A program made the position numbers and the translations under genes. Shown here one piece after another: positions 4,363 through 47,250 of a stretch of 64,000 nucleotides of DNA. This DNA is from Rhodocyclaceae bacterium UBA2250 (lineage in GTDB: Bacteria > Pseudomonadota > Gammaproteobacteria > Burkholderiales > Rhodocyclaceae), in assembly GCA_002347285.1 (NCBI GenBank), contig DDXW01000042.1, positions 13,583 through 77,582 of the forward strand, in the 5' to 3' direction. The notes under the pieces were generated by a model. That model did no database searches. It was not told the origin of the DNA and was given only the letters and a program-made list of their open reading frames with translations. Within the stretch, counting starts at the first letter, position 1; each line of letters begins with the position of its first letter.

Positions 4363-4989
4363 CTATCTCTCCAATTCAAGCAAACAACGTGCGGCCTGCA
4401 GCCCGGGAACGTCCAGATCATGGCACGCTACCATCTTCCAGCCCGCCGGCAAGGCCGCGACCTCGTCGGCAGGATACGCCCCCTTCATCGCCCACAGGCG
4501 CCGCGACAGGTGGCCGGCCAGACACACGAAATCGGACAGGCTGGCGAACGCCCGGGCCAGGACGCCATCGAAATCTCCGACCATGTCTTCGACACGCCCA
4601 GAGTAAATGCTCACATTTGTCAAGTTCAGTTCGATCCTGGCCTGCTGCTGGAACGCCGCTTTCTTTTCGACGCTTTCGACCGAGGTGATCGACCAGTCGG
4701 GCCGCGCGATCGCCAGCACCAGCCCGGGCAGGCCGGCGCCGCTGCCGATGTCGGCGAGGCGATAGGGCCGCCCCGCCAGCGCCGAATCTTGCGCGGCTCG
4801 CGCCAGCACCGGCAGCACGGCGAGCGAGTCGAGCAGATGATGAGTCACCATCTCGCCGGGGTCGCGGATCGCCGTCAGATTGTAGACCTTGTTCCATTTG
4901 GCGAGCAGCGCCAGGTAGGCGAGCAGTTTCCCTTCCGCTCCGGCCGGCAGTTCGAGGCCGAGGACGGCGATGCCTTCCGCCAGCGTCAT
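4363..4989 (-). CDS. rsmG: 16S rRNA m7G527 methyltransferase
   Basis: [28 protein letters not shown]; follows mnmG. Confidence 0.96.
4767..4789 (-). repeat. 23-bp dispersed motif, 2 mismatches; inside rsmG
   Basis: Minus strand AGATTCGGCGCTGGCGGGGCGGC, read as D-S-A-L-A-G-R. Confidence 0.88.
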
Positions 4990-6866
4990 CCCCTCCCCCG
5001 CAGCTTTTTCAGATGGACGAGCAGGATCGAGATCGCCGCTGGCGTCACGCCCTGGATGCGGCTGGCCTGCCCGACGGTCTGCGGCCGATGCTGGGCGAGC
5101 CGTTGCCGGACCTCGAACGACAGGCCGTTGAGCTGCGCGTAATCGAGATCGGGCGGAATGAGCAGGTTCTCCTGCGCCGCCATCCTCGCCACGTCCTCCT
5201 TCTGCCGCTCGATATAGCCGTGGTATTTGGCCTGGATGTCGACCTGCTCGATCACGTCAGCTGCCGTGAGGACGGCGCCGGCACCGGGCAGGGTCATGAG
5301 GCTCTGGTAACTCACTTCCGGACGGCGCAGCAGATCGAACAGCGAGTACTCGCGCTCGATCGGCTTGCCGAGCACGCGCTCGATCTCGTGCATCGCCACG
5401 ACATTGGGATTGACCCAGGTCCGCTTGAGCCGCTCGACTTCCGCCGCGACCGCATCCCTTTTCCGGTTGAACGCATCCCAGCGGACATCGTCGACCAGGC
5501 CGAGCCGGCGCCCGATCTCGGTCAGGCGCAAATCGGCGTTGTCCTCGCGCAGTGAGAGCCGGTACTCGGCGCGACTGGTGAACATGCGGTAGGGTTCCGA
5601 AACCCCGCGCGTGATCAGGTCATCGACCAGCACGCCGAGGTAGGCCTCGTCGCGGCGCGGCCACCATTCCTCCCGCCCATGGGCATGCAAGGCGGCGTTC
5701 AGGCCCGCCAGCAGGCCCTGGGCGGCCGCCTCCTCGTAGCCGGTGGTGCCGTTGATCTGGCCGGCGAAGAACAGTCCACCGATCGCCTGCGTTTCGAGCG
5801 TCGCCCTGAGCGCGCGCGGGTCGAAATAGTCGTACTCGATCGCGTAGCCCGGGCGGGTGATGTGGCAGTTCTCCAGCCCCCGGATCGAATGCACCAGTTC
5901 GAGCTGGACGTCGAACGGCAGGCTGGTCGAAATCCCCTGCGGGTAGTACTCGTGGGTGTCGAGGCCTTCGGGTTCGAGAAAGACCTGATGGGAATCCTTG
6001 CCGGCGAAGCGATGGATCTTGTCCTCGATCGAGGGGCAATAGCGCGGGCCGATGCCTTCGATCACGCCGGTGAACATCGGCGAGCGGTCGAGCCCGCCGC
6101 GGATGATGTCGTGCGTACGTGGATTCGTGTGGGTGATCCAGCACGGTACCTGGCGCGGATGCTGCGCCGGCTTGCCGAGAAAGGAAAACACCGGCACCGG
6201 CGCGTCGCCCGGTTGTTCCTGCATCACCGAGAAATCGATGGTCTTGCCGTCGAGCCGCGGCGGCGTCCCGGTCTTGAGCCGGCCGACCGGCAGGTTCAGT
6301 TCGCGCAGGCGCGCCCCTAGGGACAGCGAAGGCGGGTCGCCGAAGCGGCCGGCCCGATAGTTTTCCAGACCGACATGGACGAGGCCGTTGAGGAAGGTGC
6401 CGGCCGTCAGCACGACCGCCGTCGCCGCAAAGCGCACGCCCAGTTGCGTGACCACCCCGGTGACCCGGTCGCCCTCGACGGTGATGTCGTCCGCCGCCTG
6501 CTGAAAGATGGTCAGGTTCGGCTGGTTCTCGAGCCGCCCGCGGATCGCCTGGCGATAGAGCGAACGGTCGGCCTGTGCGCGCGTCGCGCGCACCGCCGGG
6601 CCCTTCGACGCGTTGAGGATGCGGAACTGGATGCCGGCCTCGTCGGTCGCCGCCGCCATCGCCCCGCCGAGCGCATCGACCTCCTTGACCAGATGACCCT
6701 TGCCGATGCCGCCGATCGACGGATTGCAGGACATCGCGCCGAGCGTCTCGATGTTGTGCGTCAGCAGCAGCGTCTTCACCCCCAGCCGTGCGGCGGCAAG
6801 CGCCGCCTCGGTGCCGGCATGGCCGCCGCCGATCACGATGACGTCAAAACGCTCGGGATAGATCAT
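4986..6866 (-). CDS. mnmG: tRNA uridine-5-carboxymethylaminomethyl(34) synthesis enzyme
   Basis: [50 protein letters not shown]. Confidence 0.98.
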
Positions 6867-6870
6867 TTAA

Positions 6871-6893
6871 AAACTCGGTGCTGACAGGGCGGC
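6871..6893 (+). repeat. 23-bp dispersed motif, 3 mismatches; 4 nt upstream of the mnmG start
   Basis: AAACTCGGTGCTGACAGGGCGGC. Confidence 0.82.
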
Positions 6894-6951
6894 CGGGAAA
6901 GGGGCGCAATCATACGCCGCCATTCCCTTTCAGCCAAAAAAACGCTTCGGA

Positions 6952-6967
6952 TGTTTCACGTGGAACC
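6952..6967. promoter_or_regulatory. parS site 1 (TGTTTCACGTGGAACC)
   Basis: Near-match to the bacterial parS consensus TGTTNCACGTGAAACA, about 3 kb from parAB. Confidence 0.88.
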
Positions 6968-6978
6968 GGCCCCGCTCT

Positions 6979-6994
6979 GGTTCCACGTGAAACA
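6979..6994. promoter_or_regulatory. parS site 2 (GGTTCCACGTGAAACA)
   Basis: Exact reverse complement of site 1, 11 bp away; abuts the livF stop. Confidence 0.88.
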
Positions 6995-7744
6995 TCAATG
7001 TTGGCCGCCGCCGAGGCCGAGATAGCTCTCAATCACCTTGGGATCGTCCTCGAGCTGAGCGGAAGCCCCTTCGAGCGCGACCTCGCCGGTCTCCAACACG
7101 TAGCCGTAATCGGAGATCTGCAGGGCGGCGCGCGCGTTCTGCTCGATCAGCAGGATCGCCACGCCGGTCTGGCGGAGGTCGCCGATGACGCGGAAGATCT
7201 CGCGCACGATCAGCGGGGCCAGGCCGAGGCTCGGTTCGTCGAGCATGAGAATCTTCGGCTGTGCCATCAGGGCGCGTCCGACCGCCAGCATCTGGCGCTC
7301 GCCGCCGGACAGGGTACCGGCCATCTGCCGCTCGCGCTCCTTGAGGCGCGGAAAGATCTCATAGACCTGCGCCAGCGTCTGGCGCTCGTCGCGAAAGCCG
7401 AGCCGGCGGCGCATGAAGGCGCCGAGCAGGAGGTTGTCCTCGACGCTCATCTCACCGAACAGCTCGCGCTTCTCGGGCACCAGCGTCATGCCACGCGCCA
7501 CCATCCGCTCGATGTCGATATGACGGCAGGTCTCGCCCTGATAGCGAATCTCGCCGCGGCTGAGCGGCAGCACGCCCATGATCGCCGAGAGCAGGGTCGT
7601 CTTGCCGGCGCCGTTCGGACCGATCACGGTGACGATCTCGCCCGGCCGCACCTTGAGGGAAACGTGGTGCAGCGCCTCGACCTTGCCGTAGGAAACGCAG
7701 AGGTCGCTCACCTCGAGGATGGGTTCGCGGTTCGATGCGCTCAT
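6995..7744 (-). CDS. livF: Branched-chain amino acid-type ABC transporter ATPase
   Basis: GPNGAGKTT, LSGGERQML, LDEPSLGLAP; start taken at ATG 7744. Confidence 0.9.
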   Translation of the reverse strand: MSASNREPILEVSDLCVSYGKVEALHHVSLKVRPGEIVTVIGPNGAGKTTLLSAIMGVLPLSRGEIRYQGETCRHIDIERMVARGMTLVPEKRELFGEMSVEDNLLLGAFMRRRLGFRDERQTLAQVYEIFPRLKERERQMAGTLSGGERQMLAVGRALMAQPKILMLDEPSLGLAPLIVREIFRVIGDLRQTGVAILLIEQNARAALQISDYGYVLETGEVALEGASAQLEDDPKVIESYLGLGGGQH

Positions 7745-7745
7745 C

Positions 7746-9539
7746 TCAATCGACTCCACCCAGATAAGCCTCGATCACCGCCGGGTCGCTCTGCACCTCG
7801 CGCGGCAGGCCGGCGGCGATCTTCTTGCCGAACTCCATCACGACGACGCGGTCGGCCAGATCCATGACGAACTCCATGTCGTGCTCCACCAGCAGGATGC
7901 CCATGCCACCGGCGCGCAGCTGCCTGAGCAGTTCCGCCAGCGACCGTTTTTCGAGGAAGCGCAGCCCGGCCGCCGGCTCGTCGAGCAGCAGCAGGCAGGG
8001 ATCGGCGGCGAGCGCCCGCGCGATCTCGACGATGCGCTGCTTGCCGAGCGGCAGGCTGCCGGCCGCATCGTGGAGATGCTCACCGAGGCCGACCCGCGCG
8101 CATTGGCGCGCCGCCTCCGCCAGCAGACGCCCCTCCTCCGCACGCTCGAGATGGAGCATCGCGGCCGGGACGCCATGCCGGCCGCGCAGGTGCGCGCCAA
8201 GCGCGACATTCTCCAGCACGCTCATGCCTGGCAGCAGGCGCACGTGCTGGAAGGTGCGGCTCATGCCCATGCGGGCAATGGCACGCGAACTGCGGCCATC
8301 GACGCGCTCGCCGAGAAAGCGGACTTCACCCGAAGTGGGCGGATCGACGCCGGTGATCAGGTTGAACAGCGTCGACTTGCCCGCCCCGTTGGGGCCAATC
8401 AGCGCCAGAATCTCGCCGCTCGCCACGCCGAGACTCATCCGGTCGTTCGCCACGAGACCGCCGAACTGCTTGACCGCATCCTTGACCTCCAGGAGAGGCG
8501 TCCCGGCCGGCGGCACCGCACGCGCCGGCAAGGGCTCCGCGGCAAACTCGGCGCTGGCGGGGCGGCGCGCGGACGCCGGGAACCAGCGCGTCAGCCAGGG
8601 CCACAGCCCCTCGCGCGCCCGATGCAGCATGAAGATCATCAGCAGTCCGAAGCCGATCACCTCGAAGTTGCCGGTGGCGCCGAACAGTTGCGGCAGCAGA
8701 TCCTGCAGCCATTGCTTGAGCACGGTGATCACCGCGGCGCCGAGCAGCGCGCCCCAGACGTGGGCGGCGCCGCCGATCACCGCCATGAACAGGTATTCGA
8801 TGCCGATGTGCAGGCCGAAGGGCGTCGGATTGACGAAGCGCTGGAGGTGGGCGTAAAGCCAGCCGGAAAGGCAGGCGAACAGGGCGGCGATCAGGAAGAT
8901 GACCATCTTGGCGCGGCCGGTGTCGATGCCCATCGCCTCGGCCATCAACGCACCGCCCTTGAGTGCGCGGATCGCGCGGCCGGCACGCGAGTCGAGCAGG
9001 TTGCTGGTCAGCCACACCGCGGCGAGCAGCACCACCCAGATCAGGTAGTAGAAATGGCGGCCGTCGCGCAACTCGAAACCGCCGAAGCGCAATGGCGGTA
9101 TGCCGCTGATGCCGGTATGGCCGCCGAGGAACTCGAGGTTGCCGAACAGGAAATACAGCGAGATGCCCCAGGCGATCGTGCCGAGCGGCAGATAGTGCCC
9201 CGACAGGCGCAAGGTGAGCAGGCCGAGCAACAGGGCGACCAGCGCGGTCAGCAGCAGCCCCGCGAGCAGGCCGCCCCAAGGGTTGGCCAGCGGCGCCAGC
9301 CAAGCCGGCAAGGCTGTCGCCGTGGTCAGCGCCGCGGTCGCATAGGCGCCCAGACCGACGAAAGCCGCCTGGCCGAAGGAGGTCAGCCCGCCGACGCCGG
9401 TCAGCAGCACCAGACCGAGCGCCACCAGCGCGTAGAGGCCGATGTAATTGAGCAGCGTGATGTAGAACTCGGGCAGGACGAGCGGACCAAGCGCCAGCAG
9501 CGCTAGGGCGACGCCGAGGATTAGGCGCTGGCGGCTCAC
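7746..9539 (-). CDS. Fused LivM-type permease / LivG-type ATPase
   Basis: N-terminal permease ([18 protein letters not shown]) and C-terminal [16 protein letters not shown]; GTG start 9539. Confidence 0.9.
8544..8566 (+). repeat. 23-bp dispersed motif, exact; in the LivM-LivG linker
   Basis: AAACTCGGCGCTGGCGGGGCGGC, antisense to the gene, read as R-P-A-S-A-E-F. Confidence 0.95.
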
Positions 9540-12664: not shown

Positions 12665-12687
12665 GCCGCCCCGTCAGCGCCGAGTTT
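12665..12687 (-). repeat. 23-bp dispersed motif, 1 mismatch; directly after the mnmE stop
   Basis: Minus strand AAACTCGGCGCTGACGGGGCGGC. Confidence 0.92.
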
Positions 12688-14046
12688 CTACTTGCCGATG
12701 CAGAAGCGGCCGAAGATCGTTCCCAGCAGGTCATCGGCGGTGAATTCGCCGGTGATGCGGGACAGAGCCTCCTGCGCCACGCGCAACTCCTCGGCGGCCA
12801 GCTCCAGGCTGGCCAGCCGGCCGGCCGCGGCGGCGAGACGCTGCTCGGCTTCGTCGAGCGCCTCGAGATGGCGCGCCCGCGCCAGCAGCGCATCCTCGCC
12901 ATGGCCGCGCCAGCCGGCGATGCGCAGCAGCTCGTCATGCAGCAGCGGCACCCCCTCCCCGTGCCGCGCGGAAAGAACGAGGTGCACGACGCCCTGCTCG
13001 ACGCGCCGGCACTGCGCCCGCTGCGCGAGGTCGGACTTGTTCTCGACCACCACGCGTTCGATGCCGGCGGGCAGCCGGGCGGCGACCGCCTGGTCGGCGG
13101 GCGTGACGCCGCTGCGCGCGTCGACGATCTGCAGGATGACGTCGGCCCGTTCGATCTCGCGCCAGGTGCGCTCGATGCCGATCTTCTCGACCGTGTCCTC
13201 GGTGTCGCGCAGGCCGGCAGTGTCGATCACGTGCAGCGGGATGCCCTCGACCTGGATGGTTTCGCGCACGGCGTCGCGCGTGGTGCCGGCGATGTCGGTG
13301 ACGATCGCGCGCTCCTCGCCCGCCAGCCGGTTGAGCAGCGAGGACTTGCCGACGTTCGGCAGGCCGGCGAGCACGACGGTCAGGCCGGCGCGCAGCACGC
13401 TGCCTTCTCGGGCGCGGGTGCGCAGGGCCGCCAGGTCGGCGCGCAGCCGCGCCAGCCGCGGCACGATGTCGGTGTCGGCCAGCGGGTCGATTTCCTCGTC
13501 GGGGAAGTCGAGCGTCGCCTCGATCAGGCTGCGCAGCTCGATCAGGCCGTCGGTCAGCGCCCGCACCGCGTGAGAGAACTCGCCGGAGAGCGAGCGCAGC
13601 GCGGCGCGCGCCGCCTGGGCGGAGGCGGCCTCGATCAGGTCGGCGATGCCCTCCGCCTGCGCCAGATCGATCTTGTCGTTCTCGAAGGCGCGGCGCGAGA
13701 ACTCGCCCGGCTCCGCCAGGCGCGCGCCGAGCTCGACGCAGCGCGCCAGCAGCGCGTGCATCACCACCGGTCCGCCGTGGCCGTGCAGTTCGAGCACATC
13801 CTCGCCGGTGAAGGAATGCGGCGCCGAAAAGAACAGCAGCAGGCCCTGGTCGAGCAGCTGGCCGTCGGCGGCGCGAAAGTCGGCGATGACGGCGCGGCGC
13901 GGCTGAAAGGACTCGGCCGGCCGGCCGGTCAGCGTGGCGGCTAGGGAAAGCAGGTCATGGCCCGATACCCTGACGATGCCAACACCACCGCGACCCGGTG
14001 GAGTCGCGATGGCGGCAATGACATCAGTGGGCTTTGAGTCCCGCAC
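12688..14046 (-). CDS. mnmE: tRNA modification GTPase
   Basis: AIATPPGRGGVGIVRVSG, GLPNVGKSSLLN, GTTRD, DTAGLR, C-terminal FCIGK. Confidence 0.98.
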   Translation of the reverse strand: MRDSKPTDVIAAIATPPGRGGVGIVRVSGHDLLSLAATLTGRPAESFQPRRAVIADFRAADGQLLDQGLLLFFSAPHSFTGEDVLELHGHGGPVVMHALLARCVELGARLAEPGEFSRRAFENDKIDLAQAEGIADLIEAASAQAARAALRSLSGEFSHAVRALTDGLIELRSLIEATLDFPDEEIDPLADTDIVPRLARLRADLAALRTRAREGSVLRAGLTVVLAGLPNVGKSSLLNRLAGEERAIVTDIAGTTRDAVRETIQVEGIPLHVIDTAGLRDTEDTVEKIGIERTWREIERADVILQIVDARSGVTPADQAVAARLPAGIERVVVENKSDLAQRAQCRRVEQGVVHLVLSARHGEGVPLLHDELLRIAGWRGHGEDALLARARHLEALDEAEQRLAAAAGRLASLELAAEELRVAQEALSRITGEFTADDLLGTIFGRFCIGK

Positions 14047-15631
14047 TTTCGATCATGCGATTGACCTGCCACTGCTGGGCGATCGACAGGACGTTGTTCA
14101 CCGTCCAGTAGAGCACGAGGCCCGCCGGGAAGAACAGGAACATGCCCGTGAACACGATCGGCATCCAGAGCATGATCTTCGCCTGCATCGGATCGGGCGG
14201 CGTCGGGTTAAGCTTGGTCTGCACGAACATCGTCACGCCCATGATGATCGGCAGGACGTAATAGGGATCCTTGACCGAGAGATCGGTGATCCAGCCGAGC
14301 CAGGGCGCGCCGCGCATCTCGACGGTACCGAGCAGCACCCAGTAGAGCGCGATGAAGACGGGGATCTGCACGAGGATCGGCAGGCAGCCGCCGAGCGGGT
14401 TCACCTTCTCGCGCTTGTAGAGCTCCATCATCTCCTGGTTCATGCGCTGGCGGTCGTCGGCGTAGGTCTCCTTGAGCTTCATCAGCTTGGGCGTCAGCAC
14501 GCGCATCTTCGCCATCGACTTGTAGCTCGCCGCCGACAGCGGAAAGAAGGCCGCCTTGATCAGCACGGTGAGCAGGATGATCGCCCAGCCCCAGTTGCCG
14601 ACCAGCTTGTAGAGCCATTCGAGCACCCAGAACAGCGGCGCCGCGATCATCGTCAGCCAGCCGTAGTCGACCACCAGGTCAAGGCCCGGCGCGATCTTCT
14701 CGAGTTTGTCCTGCTCCTGGGGACCGGCGTAGAGCGGCACGCTCTGCTTGCCGGTGAACGGCACCACCATGCCGGCGGCGAACAGCTTGCCATCGAGCTT
14801 GCGCGTGAAGTATTCCCGCTCGCCGGCCGGCGGGAGCCAGGCCGAGAAGAAGTAATGCTGCACCATCGCCACCCAGCCGTTGTCCGCCTTGGTCGGGTGT
14901 TTGCTCTTGCCGCCGAAGTCGCCGAAATCGACCTTCTTGAACTTGTCCTGCTCGGTGTAAAACGCCGCCCCGGTGAAGGTCGAGGTGCCCATACGGCTTG
15001 CGCCTTCAGGTGCCTTGTCGTCGCGCGTCAGTTGAAAATAGGCGTGCGCGCCAGCCGGCACGGCAGCGTCGACAACGGTATGTTCCACAGCCATCAAGTA
15101 ACTACCGCGCTTGAAGACGTAGGTCTTGACGACCTTGCCGCCTCCTTCGATGGGTGCTTCGAGCGCGACGCGCAGTTCGTTTTCGCCATCCTTCAATTCC
15201 AGCGTTTCGGCGGGCAGCCGCCAGGCGCTTTTGTGGTTCGGCAAGCCGGCGCCGATCAGTCCGGACTGGGCGGCATAGGCATGGGCAGGATCGAAAAGGA
15301 CGAAATGCTCCCCGGGGTTTTCCGTCGCCTGGTGGCGCAACAGCTCGAGGCGCACCAGATCGCCGCCCTGCGCGGAAATCTCCGCGGCGACCAGATCGGT
15401 CCTGATCTTCAAGACGGCGGCCGACTGCGCCGGCTGGGCGCCTGCCGGCACCGCACCCGGTGCGGCGACGGCAGCCGGCGCCGGCGGGACGGCGGCCTCG
15501 CCTGCAGCCTGCGGCGCTGCCGCTTGTGTCGTCGCTGCCGGCATGGGCTGATCCTTGCGCTGCCATGCATCCCACAGCATCATGCACGAGAAGAAGAAGA
15601 CCAGCAGCAGTATCAGGCGTTGATTGTCCAT
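14024..15631 (-). CDS. yidC: Membrane protein insertase
   Basis: LVVDYGWL, GNWGWAII, NPLGGCLPILVQIPVF, GLVLYW. Confidence 0.97.
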   Translation of the reverse strand: MDNQRLILLLVFFFSCMMLWDAWQRKDQPMPAATTQAAAPQAAGEAAVPPAPAAVAAPGAVPAGAQPAQSAAVLKIRTDLVAAEISAQGGDLVRLELLRHQATENPGEHFVLFDPAHAYAAQSGLIGAGLPNHKSAWRLPAETLELKDGENELRVALEAPIEGGGKVVKTYVFKRGSYLMAVEHTVVDAAVPAGAHAYFQLTRDDKAPEGASRMGTSTFTGAAFYTEQDKFKKVDFGDFGGKSKHPTKADNGWVAMVQHYFFSAWLPPAGEREYFTRKLDGKLFAAGMVVPFTGKQSVPLYAGPQEQDKLEKIAPGLDLVVDYGWLTMIAAPLFWVLEWLYKLVGNWGWAIILLTVLIKAAFFPLSAASYKSMAKMRVLTPKLMKLKETYADDRQRMNQEMMELYKREKVNPLGGCLPILVQIPVFIALYWVLLGTVEMRGAPWLGWITDLSVKDPYYVLPIIMGVTMFVQTKLNPTPPDPMQAKIMLWMPIVFTGMFLFFPAGLVLYWTVNNVLSIAQQWQVNRMIESAGLKAH

Positions 15632-15671
15632 GGTTGATCACATCGACGGCAAGTCGTAAAGGGAGGCCATT

Positions 15672-16288: not shown

Positions 16289-16296
16289 GCAGGAGT

Positions 16297-16431: not shown

Positions 16432-16530
16432 GTCGGCAGTCCTTACAGAAAAGCTAGCGATTACAACCCGTTAGCGGCATTCATGTCAAGCTTTTTTTCT
16501 TTCCTTGGTCAGAAAAATACCGACACTGCT

Positions 16531-18278: not shown

Positions 18279-21882
<3,604 letters not shown>

Positions 21883-36185: not shown

Positions 36186-36266
36186 GGTGCGATGCGGAAT
36201 GCGGGAGGGCGCACTTTAGCACCGAACGCGCGCGCCGCCGTTTTGCCTGGCCGCGCGCGGCTGGAG

Positions 36267-36869: not shown

Positions 36870-38515
36870 TCCTTGTTCCTCCTGCGCGCCACCAGGCGAA
36901 TGAAACCGTGGACCAGGCCGCCGGCCAGCGAGCCGGCCATGACCAGCCAGCCGATCTGGTCGATCCACTTGTTGAAATCGCGACCCGGGACGTAGATGTC
37001 GCGGATCTCGTTCAGCCGGCCTGCATCGGAACGGGTGTGGCATTCCTGACAGGGCACGGCCTTTTCCTTGGGCGCGACCATGTGGGTGATGAACCAGTTC
37101 ATGCGGGTTTCGATGAAGCCGAACTGGCCGGAATAGGGCAGGCCGGCGTAGTCCATGCCTGCCTTGATCGACTTGGCGAAGTCGTAGTTCTTCCAGAGCG
37201 AAGTGTCGTCGTTGCCGAAGACGTGGTTGACCACCAGCGTGTTGTTCACCGGGTCGTAAGGCTGCTTGCCGCGCATGACCTTGAAGGGCCAGATGCGGGC
37301 CTTCGGATCGTTCGCCGAACCCTCGACGCGATTGAGTTCGAGGACGCCGTCCTTGGCGATGTAGTCGTCCAGCTTGTCGGTGATGGTGACCTGACTGACG
37401 GTGCCGTTGTACCACTTGTAGGCGGGCCGCACGTTCTCGCCGTACTCGAAATCGCCCTTGGTGGCCGAGTACTTCAGGTGGCCGTGCTCGCCCTTGATGA
37501 AGAGCGGCTTGCCGTCGGCATCCATCTTGCCGGCGGTAGACCAGTCCCAGAGCGTCTTGGTGGCGACGCCGCCGCGCGCGAACTCGGGAATGTGGCAGGT
37601 CTGGCAGGCGACCTTGTTCGCGTGGTTGTTGATCTTCGCTTCCTTGTGCGGCGCATTGCCGTGACAGGATTCGCAGGTGGCGCGATTGTGGTCGTCTTTC
37701 GGCAGATCCTTGCCGTGCGTGTCCTTCGGATTGGCTGCATAGCGGCTGCCGGAGGGAATGTGGTCGTTGAACGTGTGGCAGGCGGCGCAGCTCATGTTGG
37801 CGCCATCCTTGGCCATATGCACGTCGAGCTCCTTCGGCGGGTTCTTCAGCGAGGAATCGAGATCGCCGTGCTTGACCGCATCGCCGCCGCCGCCGTTGAA
37901 GTGGCAGGCGCCGCAGTTTGCGCGGCCGGACTGGCCGACCTGCTGGGCGACCTTGGTCAGGTCGGGCGCCTTGACCTGCTTCTTTCCCGGCGGGCCTTCC
38001 ATCGGCTCGTGTTCGCGGTCTTGATAGAGCGGGTGGCCGGCGTCGGTGCTGAACTTCTTGTAACCGCCGGTGGTGTCATGGCAGGCCAGGCAATCGACGT
38101 TCTCCTGGTTGGCGAAGTCGAAGTTCTTGTCCTTCCAGCCGTAGCCGGCATGGCAGCTGGTGCAGCGCGGCTCGTTGGACAGCGGCGAGCCACAGAAATT
38201 GTTGGCCGCCCATTTCTTGCCGAGGGTCTTGCCCGTCGTCGGACTCTTGGCCTCCCAGGTCCAGTGGATGCTCTTCATGACCTGGTGACCGGCCAGGTTG
38301 TGGCAGGCGAGGCAGGCCTTGGTCACCTCCGGAGCGGACTTGAAGGGGCCTTGCAATTCCTTGAACTTGCTGTGGTCGGCGGTCTTGGCGGCAGCCTGGC
38401 CGGCTATTAGCAGACCGAAGAACAGCGCCACCGGGACGGAGGCGAGCCGTTTCAAACCGGCGCGCGCGGTGGCCGCCCAGTGAGGGCGGGTTGCAGCGAC
38501 TTTCATCTTTCTCAT
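36866..38515 (-). CDS. Octaheme c-type cytochrome, tetrathionate reductase (OTR) family
   Basis: Eight CxxCH motifs (CLACH, CTSCH, CLACH, CGACH, CAACH, CESCH, CQTCH, CQECH), NNFC, signal peptide; start uncertain (38506-38542). Confidence 0.88.
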   Translation of the reverse strand: MRKMKVAATRPHWAATARAGLKRLASVPVALFFGLLIAGQAAAKTADHSKFKELQGPFKSAPEVTKACLACHNLAGHQVMKSIHWTWEAKSPTTGKTLGKKWAANNFCGSPLSNEPRCTSCHAGYGWKDKNFDFANQENVDCLACHDTTGGYKKFSTDAGHPLYQDREHEPMEGPPGKKQVKAPDLTKVAQQVGQSGRANCGACHFNGGGGDAVKHGDLDSSLKNPPKELDVHMAKDGANMSCAACHTFNDHIPSGSRYAANPKDTHGKDLPKDDHNRATCESCHGNAPHKEAKINNHANKVACQTCHIPEFARGGVATKTLWDWSTAGKMDADGKPLFIKGEHGHLKYSATKGDFEYGENVRPAYKWYNGTVSQVTITDKLDDYIAKDGVLELNRVEGSANDPKARIWPFKVMRGKQPYDPVNNTLVVNHVFGNDDTSLWKNYDFAKSIKAGMDYAGLPYSGQFGFIETRMNWFITHMVAPKEKAVPCQECHTRSDAGRLNEIRDIYVPGRDFNKWIDQIGWLVMAGSLAGGLVHGFIRLVARRRNKE

Positions 38516-38576
38516 CCAGCGTCTGTTTGGATGCGGCCCCATTCAGAATGGGACTACGCAAAAAAGAACGCCGTTA

Positions 38577-38592
38577 AGCACGTAGCATGCCA
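38577..38592 (-). promoter_or_regulatory. Putative sigma-54 -24/-12 promoter for the octaheme operon
   Basis: Minus strand TGGCATG-CTAC-GTGC, correct GG-N10-GC spacing, about 60-80 bp upstream of the start. Confidence 0.4.
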
Positions 38593-38768
38593 TATTGCAG
38601 AAAGATGAATATATATATGGGATATCAATTAGCTAGCACGCCACAATAGCGATATGGCATGCTGGCTGCCGGGCGTATTGTTCGGCCAGAAATGGCCGTC
38701 GCTGTCTGATATGGCGTGACAGTTTTGGCGGAAGTGCCCGCGCCGTGGCGAAACGGCGCTGGGCCTGC

Positions 38769-40046
38769 CTACTTCCCGGCCGGATCGGGAACGAACTTCA
38801 GGACGTTGCCGTTGATGCAGTAGCGCTTGCCGGTCGGCGGCGGGCCGTCGTCGAAGACATGGCCGAGATGGATGCCGGAACTGGCGCTGCGTACTTCGAC
38901 GCGGCGCATGCCGTGGGATGCGTCGACGTGCTCGGTGAGGGCGCCGGGCAGCGGGCTGAAGAAGCTCGGCCAGCCGGTGCCGCTCTCGAACTTGGCATCG
39001 CTGCGGAACAGAGGCGCGCCGGTGATCGGATCGACGAAGATGCCGGATCGCTTCTCGTCGAGGTGCGAGCCGGTACCGGGGCGCTCCGTGCCCTGTTCGA
39101 AGGCGATCTTCTGCTGTGCAGGCGTGAGCAGATGGAAGCCGAGCCATTTCCAGAACCTGGGCTTGTCTCCGTTCCAGCCGGTGAAGCGCGAGACTTCCTT
39201 GCCGTTCTCGAACAGCACGATGGTCGGCGTGGCGAACAGCGCTTTTTCCAGCGTCCAGCCGGCGGGAGGCTGGGCGCTGAAAGAGCGTGCGACAGGCACC
39301 TCCGATTTCCAGTGGTCGAGCACTTCGGCCTTGAACTGCTTGCAATAGGGGCAGTCCTCCGCTTCGAAGACGATCAGCTGTCGCTTGAGGTTCAGTGCCT
39401 TCGGATCGAGCGGTTGAGCCGGCGGCGCGGCCTTGGCCGAAATCGCCGCGCCGGGATACTTCACGCCGGTGCCGCCCAGCCCGCAGTAGCCATTGGGGTT
39501 CTTTTTCAGATAGTCCTGATGGTAGGTTTCGGCAGGAAAATACTTTTTCAGCGGCGCAATCTCGGTGGTGATACTCTTGCGGCCGGCCTGCGTCAGCGCG
39601 GCCTGATAGACGTCGCGGGTTTTCAGGGCAGTCGCCTGCTGCGCTGCGTCGTTCGTGTAGATCGCGCTGCGGTAGTTCGTGCCGATATCGTTGCCCTGGC
39701 GATCACCCTGGGTCGGATCGTGGCTTTCCCAGAAGCGCGCCAACACGGTTTCGAGGCTGACCCTGGCGGGATCGAAGCTGACTTTGACCACCTCGGCATG
39801 GTTGCGCTGACTGGTTTGGCCGCGCTGCACGAGACGCTCGTGCGCCAGCACCGCCTCGTAGTTGCCGGCGATGTCGCCGTTGGCGTAGCCGCTCTCCACG
39901 TCAAGCACGCCGGGCAGTTCGCCCATGCGCTTTTCGGCGCCCCAGAAACAGCCCATGCCCAGCACGATCGTTTCGGTCCTGGCGGCATGAACGGCGGTCT
40001 GTGACATGATGGCGGCGAAGAGAAGGAGAGATAGCAGTCTGCGCAT
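38769..40046 (-). CDS. Exported MsrA-thioredoxin-like-MsrB fusion (methionine sulfoxide reductase)
   Basis: Signal peptide; GMGCFWG and YHQDY (MsrA); EDCPYC (Trx fold); KFESGTGWPSF, HLGHVFDDGP, RYCING (MsrB). Confidence 0.9.
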   Translation of the reverse strand: MRRLLSLLLFAAIMSQTAVHAARTETIVLGMGCFWGAEKRMGELPGVLDVESGYANGDIAGNYEAVLAHERLVQRGQTSQRNHAEVVKVSFDPARVSLETVLARFWESHDPTQGDRQGNDIGTNYRSAIYTNDAAQQATALKTRDVYQAALTQAGRKSITTEIAPLKKYFPAETYHQDYLKKNPNGYCGLGGTGVKYPGAAISAKAAPPAQPLDPKALNLKRQLIVFEAEDCPYCKQFKAEVLDHWKSEVPVARSFSAQPPAGWTLEKALFATPTIVLFENGKEVSRFTGWNGDKPRFWKWLGFHLLTPAQQKIAFEQGTERPGTGSHLDEKRSGIFVDPITGAPLFRSDAKFESGTGWPSFFSPLPGALTEHVDASHGMRRVEVRSASSGIHLGHVFDDGPPPTGKRYCINGNVLKFVPDPAGK

Positions 40047-40176
40047 TTTCGCTTTGAACAGCCAGACCGGAAAAAGTTTTCTACGAATTCGACAACGATC
40101 GGGCGGCCAAGAAGCCTGCGTCGAAGTCGTTACAATAGATCGCGATGAAATTCGACGCACTCACAAGGAGTCAGCC

Positions 40177-40617
40177 ATGAATATTGGAAACGCATCCCGC
40201 AGCCTCGTTCTCGCCTCGTCGTTCGCGCTGATGCTCGGCGCCGTCCCGGCCGGCGCCGGCGACAAGCCGCTGGATATCGGCAAAGGCGAGTACGAAGCGG
40301 CTTGCGCCGTGTGCCACGGCTATCAGGGCAAGGGCGACGGTCCGCTGGCCGCCCAGTTGAAGACCGCCACGCCCGATCTGACCTCGCTGGCGCGCAACAA
40401 CGGCGGAGTTTTCCCCTTCGATCGCGTCTACAAGATCATCGACGGCCGCCAGGAAGTGAAGGCGCACGGTACGCTCGAGATGCCGGTCTGGGGCCGGGCC
40501 TTCAGCCGCCAGAGCTCGGTCTACTTCGAAAACTATCCGCCGCACGACCCCGAGTCGGCCGTCCGCAGCCGCATTCTCGCGCTGACCGAATATCTCTACC
40601 GTCTGCAGGGCAAATAG
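40177..40617 (+). CDS. Mono-heme c-type cytochrome
   Basis: AAGGAG SD, signal peptide, CAVCHG, PDLTSLARNNGGVFP, MPVWG. Confidence 0.85.
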   Translation: MNIGNASRSLVLASSFALMLGAVPAGAGDKPLDIGKGEYEAACAVCHGYQGKGDGPLAAQLKTATPDLTSLARNNGGVFPFDRVYKIIDGRQEVKAHGTLEMPVWGRAFSRQSSVYFENYPPHDPESAVRSRILALTEYLYRLQGK

Positions 40618-40631
40618 CCGCTTGCGCCACC

Positions 40632-41540
40632 TCAGGCACCAATGTGCCGGTAGCTGGGGTTGTCGATCAGGGCCACGGCCTGGATGATGGCCTGGATCAC
40701 CTGCGGCCGCGGAAAGCCCTTGCGCCAGGCTAGGGCGACGCGCCGTGACGGCGCTGGTTCCTCGAAGGGAATCGACACGACCAGCTCGCTGCGATAGACG
40801 CCGTTGAGCGTGCCGGCCGGCAGCACCGAGATGCCGTAGCCCGAAGCGACCATGCAGCGCACCGTTTCGATCGAGTGCCCTTCGTGCGTCGAGCTTTCCG
40901 CGTGACTGATCTCCGGACAGGCGTCGAGCACCTGCTCGCGAAAACAGTTGCCGGCCTTGAGGACGAGGACATCCTCGCCGCGCACTTCCGTCGCGGCGAT
41001 TCTTTTGCGCCGGGCCAGCGCATGGCCCCTCGGCACGACCACTTCGAACGGCTCGTCGTAGAGGGCATGCGTGTTGATGCCGGGAACGTCGAAGGGCAAG
41101 GCGATGATCGCTGCGTCCACGGTGCCGTACTTGAGGTAATCGGCGAGCAGCGCGGTCATGCTCTCCTCGATGAACAGCTGGGTGTCCGGCGCGGTCTTGC
41201 GCATCGCCGCGATCAGTTCGGGCAACAGGTAGGGCCCGATGGTGTGGATCACGCCGAGGCGGAAGGTGCCGTGCAGCGGATCCTTGCCGAGCTGGGCCAC
41301 CTGCTCGATGCGCCGCGTTTCGTCGAGCGCCTTGCGCGCCTGGGCCGCGACCTGCCAGCCGATGTCGGTGAGAGCGACGTGGCCCTTGTTGCGTTCGATG
41401 AGAGTGACGCCCAGTTCGCTCTCGAGATTCTGCAGCGCCACGCTGAGGGTCGGCTGGCTGACATGGCATTTTTCGGCGGCGCGGCTGAACGAACCCTCGT
41501 CGGCGAAGGCGACCAGATAGCGCAGGGAAGTCAGTTTCAT
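40632..41540 (-). CDS. oxyR: LysR-family hydrogen peroxide sensor OxyR (possibly a paralogue)
   Basis: LysR HTH (CHVSQPTLS), HTIGPYLLP, redox pair GNCFREQVLDAC (C-x8-C), ETVRCMVASG; OxyR box directly upstream. Confidence 0.85.
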   Translation of the reverse strand: MKLTSLRYLVAFADEGSFSRAAEKCHVSQPTLSVALQNLESELGVTLIERNKGHVALTDIGWQVAAQARKALDETRRIEQVAQLGKDPLHGTFRLGVIHTIGPYLLPELIAAMRKTAPDTQLFIEESMTALLADYLKYGTVDAAIIALPFDVPGINTHALYDEPFEVVVPRGHALARRKRIAATEVRGEDVLVLKAGNCFREQVLDACPEISHAESSTHEGHSIETVRCMVASGYGISVLPAGTLNGVYRSELVVSIPFEEPAPSRRVALAWRKGFPRPQVIQAIIQAVALIDNPSYRHIGA

Positions 41541-42692: not shown

Positions 42693-42741
42693 GCCGGACG
42701 AAGCATTGCGCCGATCGCCTATTTGCGGCTGGGCGATCGGC

Positions 42742-42764
42742 AAATTCGGTTCTGGCGGGGCGGT
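42742..42764 (+). repeat. 23-bp dispersed motif, degenerate (4 mismatches); between ccp and fbaB
   Basis: AAATTCGGTTCTGGCGGGGCGGT, directly after a 10-bp stem hairpin (42710-42741). Confidence 0.6.
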
Positions 42765-42801
42765 TGCGGCGACCGGTTGCGGCCGCCCGGGCTGCTCGCC
42801 A

Positions 42802-43851
<1,050 letters not shown>

Positions 43852-44137
43852 GATGTCTCTCCTCTATGAAAGGGTACAGATGGAATGAACGGCGGCGCCC
43901 CGATTCGTTCATGATAAGCCTGACAGGCATGGCGAAAGCAAGCGCTCGGTCCCGGAGCAACGGTCGACATCTATCACCTTGCTTTACGCAGCGACAATTA
44001 GCTCTTGCTATCAAATCTTATACGTTTTGGCAATGGGCGAAAAGGGAACCGGCAGGGCCGACGATAGGTCGGTTTCCATTCGAGTATCGTTGCAACCGAA
44101 GCAAACCCGCCTGTTGCCGCATCCGATGGGAGAGACC

Positions 44138-45289
44138 ATGCGCCTGACCGCGATTGCCGCATTCCTGTTGCTTGGCCTGTCGGCCGCTGCGTGTTCCGGC
44201 TCGCAAGTGGCACCGATCTCCTGCGGACAGGCCGGCCAGTGGGTGGCCCCCACCGATGCCCAGGCCCAGCCGGCCGACCCGCGCATGCTGCTGGAGCGCA
44301 TGGCGCGCCAGCAGGTCGTGCTGCTCGGCGAGCAGCACGACAGCGCCGAGGATCACCGCTGGCAGCTGCAAACGCTGACGCAGCTCCATGCCCTGCAGCC
44401 TCGCATGGCGATCGGCTTCGAGATGTTTCCGCGCCGCGTGCAGCCGGTGCTCGACCAGTGGGTCGCCGGCGGTCTTGCCGAGGCGGAGTTCCTCCAGCGC
44501 GTCGAGTGGGAAAAGGTCTGGGGCTTCGATGCCCGGCTTTACCTGCCGCTGTTCCACTTCGCACGCATGAATCGCATCCCGATGCTCGCGCTCAACGTCG
44601 AGCGCAGCCTGATCGATGCCGTCGGCAGGGAGGGCTGGGACGGCGTACCCGAGTCGCAGCGGGAAGGCGTGAGCAAACCCGCCGCCGCGACGGACGCCTA
44701 CCGCAAGGCGCTGCACGCGGTATTCGATCACCATCCTGCGAAGGCGCGCGGCGAAGCGTCCTTCCCTCGTTTCGTCGAGAGCCAGGCGACCTGGGATCGC
44801 GCGATGGCGCAGGTCATGGCCGAACACCTGCGCAAGCATCCGGACACGCTGGTGGTCGGCATCATGGGGGCGGGTCATGTGCGCAACGGCCACGGCGTCG
44901 CGTACCAGCTCAAGGATCTGGGCATCGCCGACACCGGCCTGCTGCTGACCTGGGAGCGCAACGAGAAGTGCGACGCTCTGGGCAAGGGCTACGCCGACGC
45001 GCTCTATCTCGTCGAATCGCCGAAGAGCAATCCGCCCCGGCTGGGCGTGGCGACCGAGCCGGACAAGGAGGGTCTGCGCATCACCGCCGTGACCGCCGGC
45101 AGCGTCGCGGAAGCTGCCGGTCTCAGGACGGGCGACGTGATCGTCGAGGTTGCCGGCCAGCCGGCGAAGAGCCTCACCGTCCTGCGCTCCGTCGTGCAGC
45201 GGCAGGTGCCGGGCACCTGGCTGCCGCTGAAAGTGCGGCGCGCAGGCACCGAGCTGGAAATTGTCGCGCGCTTTCCGGCCGGCTCATGA
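44138..45289 (+). CDS. ChaN-family heme-binding lipoprotein with C-terminal PDZ domain
   Basis: Lipobox-like LSAAAC, VLLGEQHD, IGFEMF, QATWDRAMA, GAGHV; PDZ-like RLGV...AEAAGLRTGDVI. Confidence 0.82.
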   Translation: MRLTAIAAFLLLGLSAAACSGSQVAPISCGQAGQWVAPTDAQAQPADPRMLLERMARQQVVLLGEQHDSAEDHRWQLQTLTQLHALQPRMAIGFEMFPRRVQPVLDQWVAGGLAEAEFLQRVEWEKVWGFDARLYLPLFHFARMNRIPMLALNVERSLIDAVGREGWDGVPESQREGVSKPAAATDAYRKALHAVFDHHPAKARGEASFPRFVESQATWDRAMAQVMAEHLRKHPDTLVVGIMGAGHVRNGHGVAYQLKDLGIADTGLLLTWERNEKCDALGKGYADALYLVESPKSNPPRLGVATEPDKEGLRITAVTAGSVAEAAGLRTGDVIVEVAGQPAKSLTVLRSVVQRQVPGTWLPLKVRRAGTELEIVARFPAGS

Positions 45290-47250
45290 AGCACTTCCTC
45301 CTTTGGCTGCTGTGGCTGCCGCTGGCGGCGCGGGCGCTGCCGCATCTCGAACTCGATGTGTCGCTCGATCCTGCGACGCGGCAGCTCGACGTGCGCGCGA
45401 CGTTGTCGGACGAGCATGAGCTGCGCTCCTTCCGGCTCGGCCGGGAGTACGAGGTCACCGCGCTGCAGGTGAATGGACGGCCCCATGCCCGGTCGAGCCG
45501 CCCCGCCAGCGCCGAGTTTCCACTGCCGGCCGGCGCACGCCGGGTGGAACTTGCCTACCGCGCAACGCTGCCGCCGACGCCGACGCTCGATCACCGCCAG
45601 GTCCTCGGCCAGCGCGGCGGCACGGCCGGGCAGCAGGGCAGCTTCCTGCCCGCTTCGGCCGGCTGGTATCCCGATCCGGGCGTGCCGTTCAGCTATCGAG
45701 CCGCGCTGCGCCTGCCGGCTGGCCAGAAGGGGCTGGTGCCGGGCGAGCTGCGCGAGGAATCGGAGTCGTCCGCCGGCTATCGTGCCGTGTTCGATTTCCC
45801 CCATCCGGCCGAGGGCATCGACCTGATGGCCGGGCCCTACGTGGTCCGCGAGCGAGCGCTTGAGGTCGGCGCGCGCACGATCCGCATCCGCACCTGGTTC
45901 CATCCCGAGCTGCAGGAGTTCGCGCAGCCTTACCTCGACGATTCGGCGCGCTACATCGCGCGCTATTCGCAGCTGATCGGCGCCTATCCGTTCTGCATGT
46001 TCAGCATCGTCTCCAGCCCCACCCCCACCGGCTACGGCATGCCGAGCCTCACCTACCTCGGCCGCGAGGTGATCCGCCTGCCCTTCATCCGCGCCACCTC
46101 GCTCGGCCACGAGGTGCTGCACAACTGGTGGGGCAACGGCGTCTATCCCGACTGGCGGAGCGGCAACTGGTCCGAGGGCCTGACGACCTTCCTCGCCGAC
46201 TACGCCTACAAGGAAGATGCGGGTGCGGACGCCGCGCGCGAGATGCGCCTCGGCTGGCTGCGCAACCTCGCCGCCGTGCCGCCCGGCGAGGACAGCGCGC
46301 TCAAGGACTTCACCGCGCGCCGCCACGGCATCTCCTCGATCATCGGCTACGACAAGGCGGCGATGGTCTTCCTGATGCTGCGCGACGAGATTGGCAAGGA
46401 CGCCTTCGAGCGCGGCCTGCGCCTCTTCTGGGAACGCAAGCGCTTCCGCGAGGCCGGCTGGGCCGATCTCGAAGCCGCCTTCGCGCAGGCGGCGGGCCGC
46501 CCGCTGCGCGGCTTTTTCCGGCAGTGGGTCGACCGGCCCGGCGCACCTGCCCTGCGGCTCAAGTCGGCCGCGATGCAGGGCGGCCAGCTCGAACTCGGCA
46601 TCGAACAGAACGGCGGCTATGCGCTGGAAATTCCCTTGCGGCTCGGCTTCGCCGACCACACGGAAACACGGAAAGTGCGCACGACCGGACGGGAAACCAA
46701 GCTCGCCATCGACAACGCGGCGGGCGCGCAGACGGTCGAACTCGATCCCGACTACCGCCTCTGGCGGCGCGTCGATCCTGCGACGCTGCCCGCGATCCTG
46801 CGCGAAGTCTTCGTCGCGCCGCGTGCCGCGCTGGTCTTACTCGAAGTCGATGCAAACGCCCGCACGGCCGCACTCGCCCTGGCCGCGCGGGTGCTTGATG
46901 CAAAGCCGGTGCAGGCGGAAGACGGCGCCGCCGGCCTGCCCGGCAGCGCGCCCGCACTCGTCATTGGCCCGGATGCCGCCGCCGACGTCTGGCTCGCCCG
47001 CCACGGCCTGCCGCCGCGGCCCGCGGCCGCACACGGCAGCGCCCAGGTCTGGACCGGTCGCGATGCAGGCGGTCGGCCCTATGCCGTGGTTGCGGCGCGC
47101 GATCCGGCCGCCCTCGCGGCGCTCGCGCGGCCCCTGCCCCACTACGGCAGCCAGAGCTGGCTCGCCTTCGACGGCGCGCGCGCCATCGACAAGGGCGTCT
47201 GGCCGCCGCGCAGCGCGCTGCTTCAGGTTAGAACGGGCGCATCACACTGA
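45286..47250 (+). CDS. Exported M1-family zinc aminopeptidase
   Basis: HEVLHNWWGN (HExxH), WSEGLTT, IGYDKAAMVF; ATG overlaps the upstream stop. Confidence 0.88.
   Translation: MKHFLLWLLWLPLAARALPHLELDVSLDPATRQLDVRATLSDEHELRSFRLGREYEVTALQVNGRPHARSSRPASAEFPLPAGARRVELAYRATLPPTPTLDHRQVLGQRGGTAGQQGSFLPASAGWYPDPGVPFSYRAALRLPAGQKGLVPGELREESESSAGYRAVFDFPHPAEGIDLMAGPYVVRERALEVGARTIRIRTWFHPELQEFAQPYLDDSARYIARYSQLIGAYPFCMFSIVSSPTPTGYGMPSLTYLGREVIRLPFIRATSLGHEVLHNWWGNGVYPDWRSGNWSEGLTTFLADYAYKEDAGADAAREMRLGWLRNLAAVPPGEDSALKDFTARRHGISSIIGYDKAAMVFLMLRDEIGKDAFERGLRLFWERKRFREAGWADLEAAFAQAAGRPLRGFFRQWVDRPGAPALRLKSAAMQGGQLELGIEQNGGYALEIPLRLGFADHTETRKVRTTGRETKLAIDNAAGAQTVELDPDYRLWRRVDPATLPAILREVFVAPRAALVLLEVDANARTAALALAARVLDAKPVQAEDGAAGLPGSAPALVIGPDAAADVWLARHGLPPRPAAAHGSAQVWTGRDAGGRPYAVVAARDPAALAALARPLPHYGSQSWLAFDGARAIDKGVWPPRSALLQVRTGASH
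45497..45519 (-). repeat. 23-bp dispersed motif, exact; inside the M1 peptidase gene
   Basis: Plus strand GCCGCCCCGCCAGCGCCGAGTTT, read as R-P-A-S-A-E-F. Confidence 0.95.

Follow-up and report, generated by a model that had tools for sequence, protein, structure and literature searches.

The 64-kb stretch analyzed here (hereafter the window; 64,000 nucleotides of Rhodocyclaceae bacterium UBA2250, contig DDXW01000042.1) carries many copies of a 23-base word, GCCGCCYCGCCAGCGCCGAGTTT (reverse complement AAACTCGGCGCTGGCGRGGCGGC), that is ancient, clade-specific, free of orientation and constrained at the DNA level over 23-25 bp. The word is kept at hundreds of dispersed sites wherever it is tolerated: immediately behind stop codons, downstream of terminators, within 5′ leaders and in the loops, linkers and tails of proteins. 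The copies stay at fixed places across genera and decay by substitution, and all copies in one genome drift together to a genome-specific dialect. On balance, we favor reading the motif as a signal like the DNA uptake sequences (DUS) and uptake signal sequences (USS) of other bacteria, spread by a genome-wide biased process that would most likely be sequence-biased DNA uptake, because DUS and USS show the same properties, including copies in open reading frames (ORFs) at poorly conserved residues. This likeness had been proposed in a first-pass annotation of the sequence; it is borne out by the positional conservation across genera and the genome-specific dialects, and an approximately 3-fold lower density in viral sequences would fit it.

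The same annotation reported the motif in six proteins and four reading frames. Coordinates and translations confirmed this, peptides included, and the 23-base word is common to all six sites. Allowing up to three mismatches, 13 copies were found in the window, where 100 dinucleotide shuffles gave an expectation of 0.00. The 16-mer core matched 12 times (0.21 expected) and a relaxed pattern 16 times (0.27 expected). All 23 positions are strongly conserved. Such strong over-representation of one asymmetric word, seen in the window, in its relatives and in metagenome contigs, is a property of DUS and USS. The density is about 1 per 3.5-6.6 kb, with a copy about every 5 kb along the chromosome.

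The 13 copies occur in both orientations, 8 on the plus strand and 5 on the minus strand. The window spans the origin region of the chromosome, with oriC at about 16.5 kb. To the left of dnaA/oriC the orientations are +,+,-,-,+ and to the right +,-,+,+,+,-,-,+; no skew or switch across dnaA/oriC was found among these 13 copies, which are a small sample, and both orientations without replication-strand polarity are again found in DUS and USS. A polar signal for RecBCD/AddAB or FtsK, similar to Chi or to the FtsK orienting polar sequences (KOPS), would also be an over-represented asymmetric word found in phage-like contigs. Such a signal is extremely improbable here, given the lack of any skew or switch across dnaA-dnaN-gyrB in the window and a length of 23 nt, far beyond that of Chi (5-8 nt) or KOPS (8 nt).

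The closest named relatives of the organism are Sulfuricystis multivorans and Sulfuritalea (Sterolibacteriaceae). Syntenic 20-kb slices of S. multivorans AP018718.1, of AP019373.1, of a metagenome-assembled genome (MAG) labelled Rhodocyclaceae and of a Sulfuritalea MAG hold 4-6 copies each, and the relatives as a group 5-7 copies per 20 kb. The sites after the mnmE stop codon, in the LivM-LivG linker, in the mnmG leader and in the rsmG loop are common to these slices and the window, and a site after atpC is shared among the relatives and decayed in the window genome. Orthologous copies in four to five genomes (loci L081 and L083-L086) lie in both coding and non-coding sequence with diverged flanks, the positional stability and dialect pattern of DUS and USS. 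The motif was also found in MAG090 and other MAGs, and exact 23-mers in more than 120 metagenome contigs. Sulfurisoma has decayed copies only, and no motif was found in the 15-22 kb examined of Azospira, Rhodocyclus and Aromatoleum.

The window dialect, with C5/G20, is (C)GCCGCCYCGCCAGCGCCGAGTTT and the majority dialect, with T5/C20, (GT)GCCGTCYCGCCAGCGCCGACTTT. Position 5 is C in 17 of 17 window-genome copies and T in about 85% of the copies in five other genomes, while position 20 is G in 12 of the 17 and mostly C in the other five genomes. Dialect changes have run in parallel at orthologous sites. On 120 metagenome contigs, about 91% of 225 copies are T5/C20, C5 is tightly linked to G20 (Fisher p=2e-10), and the copies on one contig agree with one another, position -1 included. 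Because the dialect changes are parallel and copies agree within a genome, common descent alone is insufficient, and a genome-wide process pulls the copies to a preferred word.

That the constraint acts on the DNA and not on the peptide, as the first-pass annotation had it, is upheld by unrelated peptides, rare codons and retention of the word at orthologous non-coding sites. The strongest of this evidence is the conservation of the word at orthologous intergenic positions in four genomes with diverged flanks. In the window the same 23-mer is read in four of the six frames and gives four unrelated peptides; a fifth, ESRRWRDG, is found in relatives, bringing the in-frame copies to five frames. 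Pfam supports all six host genes, namely rsmG (GidB), a fusion of BPD_transp_2 and ABC_tran, a cytochrome c5-type gene, a short-chain dehydrogenase/reductase (SDR), a TtcA-type PP-loop ATPase and an M1 peptidase. All six had been described as intact, and their frames are indeed open through the motif. Several motif codons are rare in 32 window genes: AGG, already suspected of being so, makes up 3.4% of Arg codons, TTT 9.9% of Phe, CCA 3.5% of Pro, AGT 2.9% of Ser, AAA 11% of Lys and GCT 2.7% of Ala. Ranked by codon preference among 12,925 seven-codon windows, the six that hold the motif are all within the lowest 4-17%. Codon identity across genomes at invariant residues was 8/12 in the motif versus 283/750 outside it, a trend in a small sample (p=0.07). 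For annotation, the motif accounts for odd rare-codon peptides in otherwise conserved proteins.

The motif had also been said to arise by substitution and not by insertion. This stands for the copies in the SDR, M1 peptidase, cytochrome c5 and TtcA genes, which show no motif-sized gaps, while those in rsmG and the LivM-LivG fusion, lying in a variable loop and linker, are ambiguous. Alignment with orthologues, the check that had been suggested, revealed no clean 21-24 nt in-frame insertion at any site examined. The SDR and TtcA genes form a pair that is syntenic in many Betaproteobacteria. The SDR/pteridine-reductase-like gene (27774-28535, plus strand) has a perfect copy (27941-27963, minus strand) at residues 57-64, NSALARRR, with a rare AGG codon. 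Across the motif codons, 13 close syntenic orthologues align without a gap; three carry the motif (L001, L002 and L329) and ten do not, reading x-S-A-x-x-x-Q-A-D-L. Aromatoleum has GGC TCG GCC CTG GCT TTC CAG GCC where the window has AAC TCG GCG CTG GCG AGG CGG CGC. The x-A-D-L said to be usual in SDR enzymes is Q-A-D-L in the syntenic orthologues and R-R-D-L in the window. This comparison shows the SDR motif to be a substitution on existing codons, with the conserved Q-A before D-L replaced by R-R.

In the M1 peptidase gene (45286-47250, plus strand) a perfect copy (45497-45519, plus strand) encodes SRPASAEF at residues 71-78, within a part of the N-terminal domain that resembles a surface loop. 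Bounded by ..V(N/D)G and LPAG, this loop has equal length with or without the motif in about 115 full-length homologues; for example, RPAKPSRRFARTVYALPSG aligns with RPHARSSRPASAEFPLPAG. Similarly, the copy in the cytochrome c5 gene (21935-22357, minus strand; copy at 22200-22222, plus strand, one mismatch) encodes residues 46-53, KLGAAEAA, in an Ala-rich segment before the haem domain. It overlies K-V-K-L-[AG]-x-x-Q-A, conserved in 120 homologues, and needed only a few substitutions. In the TtcA gene (28532-29425, plus strand) a perfect copy (29378-29400, plus strand) encodes residues 283-290 of 297, AASPAPSF, with the rare codons CCA, AGT and TTT. This copy lies in the variable tail past the conserved GD-x-AFD; the tail is of ordinary length, and that of the syntenic L002 has nearly the same length without the motif. 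Taken together, the alignments indicate that the SDR, M1, cytochrome c5 and TtcA copies were made by point substitution on pre-existing codons, not by cassette insertion.

In rsmG (4363-4989, minus strand) the copy (4767-4789, plus strand) encodes QDSALAGRP at residues 67-75 and lies in the variable loop that precedes the D-[IV]-G-S-G S-adenosylmethionine motif. Most of the 120 closest homologues (70-90% identity) have [KNDE]-S-A-L-A-G-R, all with equal loop length, and the decayed versions show substitutions. In a set of 150 more distant representatives the loop is between 11 and 35 residues long; motif-free loops of equal length exist (VLQTLTAGQPF), and others are 6-7 residues shorter. Because the loop length varies and some loops are 6-7 residues shorter, the origin here is ambiguous. 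The linker of the LivM-LivG fusion (7746-9539, minus strand) holds a perfect copy (8544-8566, minus strand; RRPASAEF). Four genomes have kept this copy, in contrast to the remainder of the linker, which varies, and for this copy, as for that in rsmG, substitution or an ancient indel may be the origin. Elsewhere, copies in ORFs arose by substitution at poorly conserved positions and in several frames, as in DUS and USS.

The non-coding sites behave in the same way. Comparison with the syntenic 21-kb locus L002 showed gains and losses of the motif without motif-sized indels. At the site after the atpC terminator three genomes have the motif, placed just after the terminator and not within it, and the window genome has an equal length of diverged sequence. 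Wherever a copy is missing at an orthologous locus the same length of diverged sequence is found instead, and decayed copies differ by substitutions, not deletions. No clean presence/absence indel of element length was seen against orthologous loci for the SDR, M1, cytochrome c5 and TtcA sites, L002 or the non-coding sites. Miniature mobile elements spread by a transposase or nuclease, such as repetitive extragenic palindromic elements (REP/REPIN), miniature inverted-repeat transposable elements or the Ssn-associated NTS/SRM repeats, would explain the high number of identical dispersed copies, the copies that fill an entire intergenic spacer, and an rsmG loop 6-7 residues longer than the shortest RsmG loops. 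The absence of clean 21-24 nt indels at the sites examined largely refutes this explanation, as do vertical inheritance at fixed sites and in-frame copies in five frames. In addition, no target-site duplication or conserved flanks were found at the copies. The motif has no hairpin or inverted repeat and folds no better than shuffled sequence (minimum free energy -2.4 to -7.7 kcal/mol, z = 0.0 to +1.3, both strands and both dialects), which excludes the REP/REPIN and Ssn-NTS/SRM hairpin repeats. We consider an origin by mobile insertion very improbable.

REP/REPIN elements with their RAYT transposases are also short, abundant and genome-specific, and can persist vertically at fixed intergenic sites; they differ in being imperfect palindromes that form hairpins and are intergenic only, whereas the motif occurs in-frame in genes and leaves no insertion footprint. 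The NTS/SRM are an abundant repeat in a betaproteobacterium that is described as modulating natural transformation and has species-specific variants (PMC11893778). These inverted repeats of 20-50 nt fold into hairpins and are the substrate of Ssn single-strand nucleases (PMC11893778). In contrast to the motif, which is not self-complementary and is evenly spread, they cluster round particular genes and flank an ssn gene.

The M1 peptidase loop holds the motif in either orientation, which shows that orientation is irrelevant to whatever maintains it. The forward motif, R-[PL]-A-S-A-[ED]-F, is present in the window and in more than 23 homologues. The exact reverse complement, E-S-R-R-W-R-D-G (GAA AGT CGG CGC TGG CGG GAC GGC), is found in L002 (18211-18233), L329 (10206-10228) and over 15 others, its position matching that of the forward copies to about one codon. 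The motif-bearing M1 proteins form one clade, in which forward forms are basal and reverse forms nested. The neighbor-joining tree is star-like at 80-85% identity, a resolution too low for counting switches, so that only at least one switch can be claimed and a count of independent switches was dropped. More distant M1 homologues read ..R-D-G-R-R-W.. at this place, which already contains CGG CGC TGG. An R-D-G-R-R-W proto-site of this kind may have given rise to the reverse form, with recombination later exchanging the forward allele for it.

The motif lies inside the M1 gene, whose extent needed a correction. The 1019-codon ORF from 44191 to 47250 was rejected in favor of a start at 45286, where an ATGA overlap with the ChaN-PDZ stop is followed by a signal peptide conserved in relatives. 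M1 homologues fall into two length classes, of about 577-591 and 647-707 residues, with the window protein in the long class, and at 46550-46740 the window protein has about 60-70 extra residues in its C-terminal half relative to its closest relatives (comparison with L002). P0019, a homologue encoded by a Rhodocyclaceae MAG, has its motif peptide interrupted by about 35 inserted residues (RRPTSAD...RPGADF), as if by insertion into the motif or its duplication.

The seven clear non-coding copies all abut gene ends. Stop codons touch or overlap the AAA/TTT end at five of them. The TCT end of the copy at 2707-2729 (plus strand, one mismatch) abuts the stop of parB, which is on the minus strand. 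The copy at 12665-12687 (plus strand, one mismatch) occupies the space that separates the mnmE stop (12688) from the start of a tauE-like gene (12657), both genes on the minus strand, and is present in 4/4 genomes compared. A perfect copy at 34619-34641 (plus strand) overlaps by its TTT end the stop of an ABC1/UbiB-like kinase gene (34641-36185, minus strand), and another (56161-56183, minus strand) adjoins, with no base in between, the stop of an outer-membrane beta-barrel gene (55447-56160, plus strand), upstream of feoB. The copy at 59005-59027 (plus strand, one mismatch) is the entire spacer between convergent stops, TGA at 59002-59004 and the TAA of DUF3501 at 59027-59029 (minus strand). 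At the other two sites a start codon lies 5 nt past the TTT end. The mnmG 5′ leader has a degenerate copy (6871-6893, minus strand, three mismatches), orthologous to good copies in L083-L086, whose TTT end is 5 nt from the ATG at 6866. A GACTTT variant (48245-48267, minus strand) lies about 5 nt upstream of the likely ATG of a DUF423 gene on the minus strand, with a decayed orthologous copy in Sulfurisoma (L087).

An element of the 3′ or 5′ untranslated region, acting as RNA on mRNA stability, termination or translation, would fit the constant mRNA-sense reading AAA(C/G)UCGG... after stop codons (2707, 12665, 56161 and the post-atpC site in relatives) and ...CCGA(C/G)UUU 5 nt before AUG at two starts with no obvious Shine-Dalgarno sequence. 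It is nevertheless improbable, as the motif occurs in both orientations within genes, flips at the M1 site, serves both strands where it lies between convergent genes, and has no stable or conserved structure. An Rfam scan of the window found no family for the motif, its single match being one tRNA. The placement itself may also be accounted for by mutational economy, since stop codons can overlap the A-rich end and supply it in a genome of 65% GC.

In the mnmG and DUF423 leaders (6866-6893 and 48238-48267) the motif ends 5 nt before the ATG, at the expected place of a Shine-Dalgarno sequence, and a purine-rich Shine-Dalgarno is not visible. A GTG at 48281, which would add an in-frame copy, was considered and judged unlikely as the DUF423 start, because sequence conservation with L002 starts from the ATG a few bases past the motif.

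The 16-mer core is found in more than 120 IMG/VR contigs, with the full word in 88 of 135 matches. About 20 IMG/VR loci (L095 3299-4057 on the minus strand, L104, L108, L111, L116, L117 and others) share the C-terminal tail of a phage DNA methyltransferase, ..RIEQAYAQPRLFEDAKVGAGDTAVQGD... The shared phage stretch covers about 110 nt at the 3′ end of the methyltransferase gene (DPPY motif), and the motif encodes KVGAGDTA there, once more in a tail that follows a conserved domain. Extra copies occur about once per 21 kb in viral contigs versus once per 6.6 kb in metagenome contigs, two sets that were ascertained differently. The phages and prophages of the clade thus carry the word, apparently at an about 3-fold lower density. 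Within the window, the segments absent from L002 (about 9 kb) hold 0 copies, where about 2 were expected. These segments lie at 36230-40640, 29400-30470, 30870-32800 and 42700-44150, none with a reported motif copy, and the first includes a multihaem cytochrome gene (36866-38542). In L145 (IMGVR_UViG_3300009945_000063) five tandem repeats of about 316 nt (883-2231) each carry a perfect motif copy; the array has stops in all frames and looks non-coding.

The main rival to DNA uptake is a binding site for a chromosomal DNA-binding protein with a nucleoid-organizing, transcription-related or self-recognition/defence role, in which sites would be selected directly and dialects would follow from co-evolution of protein and site, with no DNA uptake. 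It is kept alive by the placement of the A/T end at stops and starts and by the phage copies. The non-coding positions conserved across genera, the genome-specific dialects, the phage-like copies (including the conserved place in the methyltransferase tail), and the recurrent placement next to gene ends and, in two cases, 5 nt ahead of a start codon are all consistent with it. Known abundant site-specific chromosomal sites, such as parS, matS, SBS, NBS and IHF sites, are palindromic, few or degenerate, whereas the motif is asymmetric, 23 bp long and present about once per 5 kb. Its position is inconsistent (protein loops, tails, leaders, post-terminator sites), its orientation can be either even at the same site, and many copies decay freely in single lineages, which speaks against a need for each individual site. 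We consider a binding site unlikely, though clearly a stronger candidate than the alternatives discussed above.

Sequence-biased uptake is best judged against the known systems. The Neisseriaceae DUS are the 12-nt AT-DUS ATGCCGTCTGAA and its dialects, recognized by the minor pilin ComP and sharing an invariant CTG core. Like the motif, DUS are an over-represented asymmetric word in both orientations, with a third to half of the copies in genes at permissive positions. Their positions are common to related species, lineage dialects differ at one to three positions, they are sparser in mobile DNA, as the motif may be, and their host is also a betaproteobacterium. The majority dialect (G)TGCCGTCY (L002, L083-L086, L329 and metagenome loci) matches the first 7-8 bases of AT-DUS, which may be a coincidence or a remnant of shared receptor ancestry. 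The DUS consensus with its invariant CTG core is not matched by the motif (CTG is not in register, only (T)GCCGTCY being shared), the remainder is unrelated, and the motif is 23-25 nt long versus 10-12. DUS also occur at about 1 per kb, versus about 1 per 3.5-6.6 kb here, and the window has no terminator-forming inverted pairs.

The Pasteurellaceae USS (9-nt core AAGTGCGGT or ACAAGCGGT, with an extended motif of about 30 bp) are similar to the motif in overall length. As here, their ORF copies arise by substitution, their positions are stable across genera, and there are two or more family-level dialects. In ORFs, USS copies arise where residues are poorly conserved, and they alter the frequencies of peptides (Findlay and Redfield 2009, PMC2817400), and 34-65% of the copies of uptake sequences lie in ORFs at such residues (PMC2817400). 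The motif differs in its unrelated sequence, which is GC-rich and not AT-flanked, in having all 23 positions conserved instead of a core with weak flanks, in its lower density, and in its hosts, which are environmental sulfur-oxidizing, denitrifying Betaproteobacteria.

Under sequence-biased uptake, molecular drive of the DUS/USS type would both create and homogenize the copies. Competent cells would preferentially take up fragments with a word recognized by a surface receptor, and better-matching alleles would be over-transmitted through homologous recombination. Selection at the protein level would confine copies to permissive sites, and a shift in receptor preference would produce a new dialect.

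Several points weigh against uptake. No uptake sequence has so far been described in Sterolibacteriaceae, and our literature search found no uptake sequences and no uptake or natural-transformation data for the clade or for Sterolibacteriaceae, nor any paper with the motif sequence itself. No ComP-type minor pilin or competence machinery is encoded within the 64-kb window. With about twice the length of DUS (12 nt), the word is also 3- to 5-fold sparser than DUS/USS. About half of DUS/USS lie in terminators; no inverted pairs of this type were found among the window copies, and no terminators were seen at the copies located at 55-60 kb in the window. The presence in phage-like contigs would also fit a host factor whose binding benefits phages, and a role in expression could be suggested by the preferential position of the AAA/TTT end next to stop and start codons. 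Finally, the orientation flips at a single protein loop in M1 are not obviously explained by simple stepwise substitution.

Sequence-specific uptake has been documented only in the host-associated Neisseriaceae and Pasteurellaceae, which are still treated as the whole set (bioRxiv 10.1101/2025.10.24.684340). We judge the chances to be evenly balanced that the motif represents a third, independently evolved family of uptake sequences, 23-25 bp long and in several dialects, in free-living Sterolibacteriaceae-like Betaproteobacteria with their own putative receptor. Its hosts would be Sulfuricystis, Sulfuritalea and many MAGs from wastewater, aquifers and hydrocarbon sites. If so, self-preferential uptake would not be peculiar to mucosal commensals and would occur in environmental sulfur-oxidizing, denitrifying bacteria. 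The motif would then point to a new receptor-signal pair and serve as a genomic marker of natural transformation in uncultured lineages, and the flipped M1 alleles and dialect shifts would be footprints of frequent transformation-mediated allele replacement in environmental bacteria. S. multivorans is cultured and its complete genome (AP018718.1) carries the motif, making the hypothesis directly testable. If uptake plays no part, so abundant an asymmetric site of 23 bp, its dialects co-evolving, would point to a new chromosomal DNA-binding system, at least equally interesting.

Some further copies are degenerate. One with three mismatches (25901-25923, minus strand) lies in a Methyltransf_28 gene (25027-26223, minus strand) and is orthologous, without an indel, to full copies in L002 and L329. 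The relaxed scan, with 0.27 expected per window, added a candidate in mnmE, GCCGCGCCGTCATCGCCGACTTT (13876-13898, minus strand), which may be due to chance, and an intergenic candidate with three mismatches (42742-42764, minus strand).

At the syntenic place in L002 the cytochrome c5 gene is absent, which removed it as an orthologue for comparison. Its place is taken by an HNH-endonuclease-like ORF (1530-2435, minus strand) with an in-frame motif, SKVGAGETA, along with a HIT-family gene. In the window, a single tRNA gene (22383-22456, minus strand) lies directly upstream of the cytochrome c5 gene. The fusion of LivM (permease) and LivG (ATPase) into a protein of 597 residues (7746-9539) is conserved in Sulfuricystis and relatives. 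An inverted repeat at 6951-6997, with an 18-bp stem (GATGTTTCACGTGGAACC...GGTTCCACGTGAAACATC) followed by a T run on the minus strand, resembles an intrinsic terminator for the liv operon, and four genomes share it. Between this repeat and mnmG lie a TATGAT -10-like box and the degenerate motif copy.

The window sequence matches metagenome contigs ENA ERZ27315059 k141_74397 (191 kb) and JGI 3300002821, and the organism is present in hydrocarbon-site and bioreactor metagenomes. Among the public runs with the organism there is one RNA run, at 25% of words. In the origin region (15600-21900) yidC-mnmE are on the minus strand and dnaA (16674-18065), dnaN (18279-19385) and gyrB (19396-21882) on the plus strand, and the GC content drops to 0.59 at 16-20 kb of the window.

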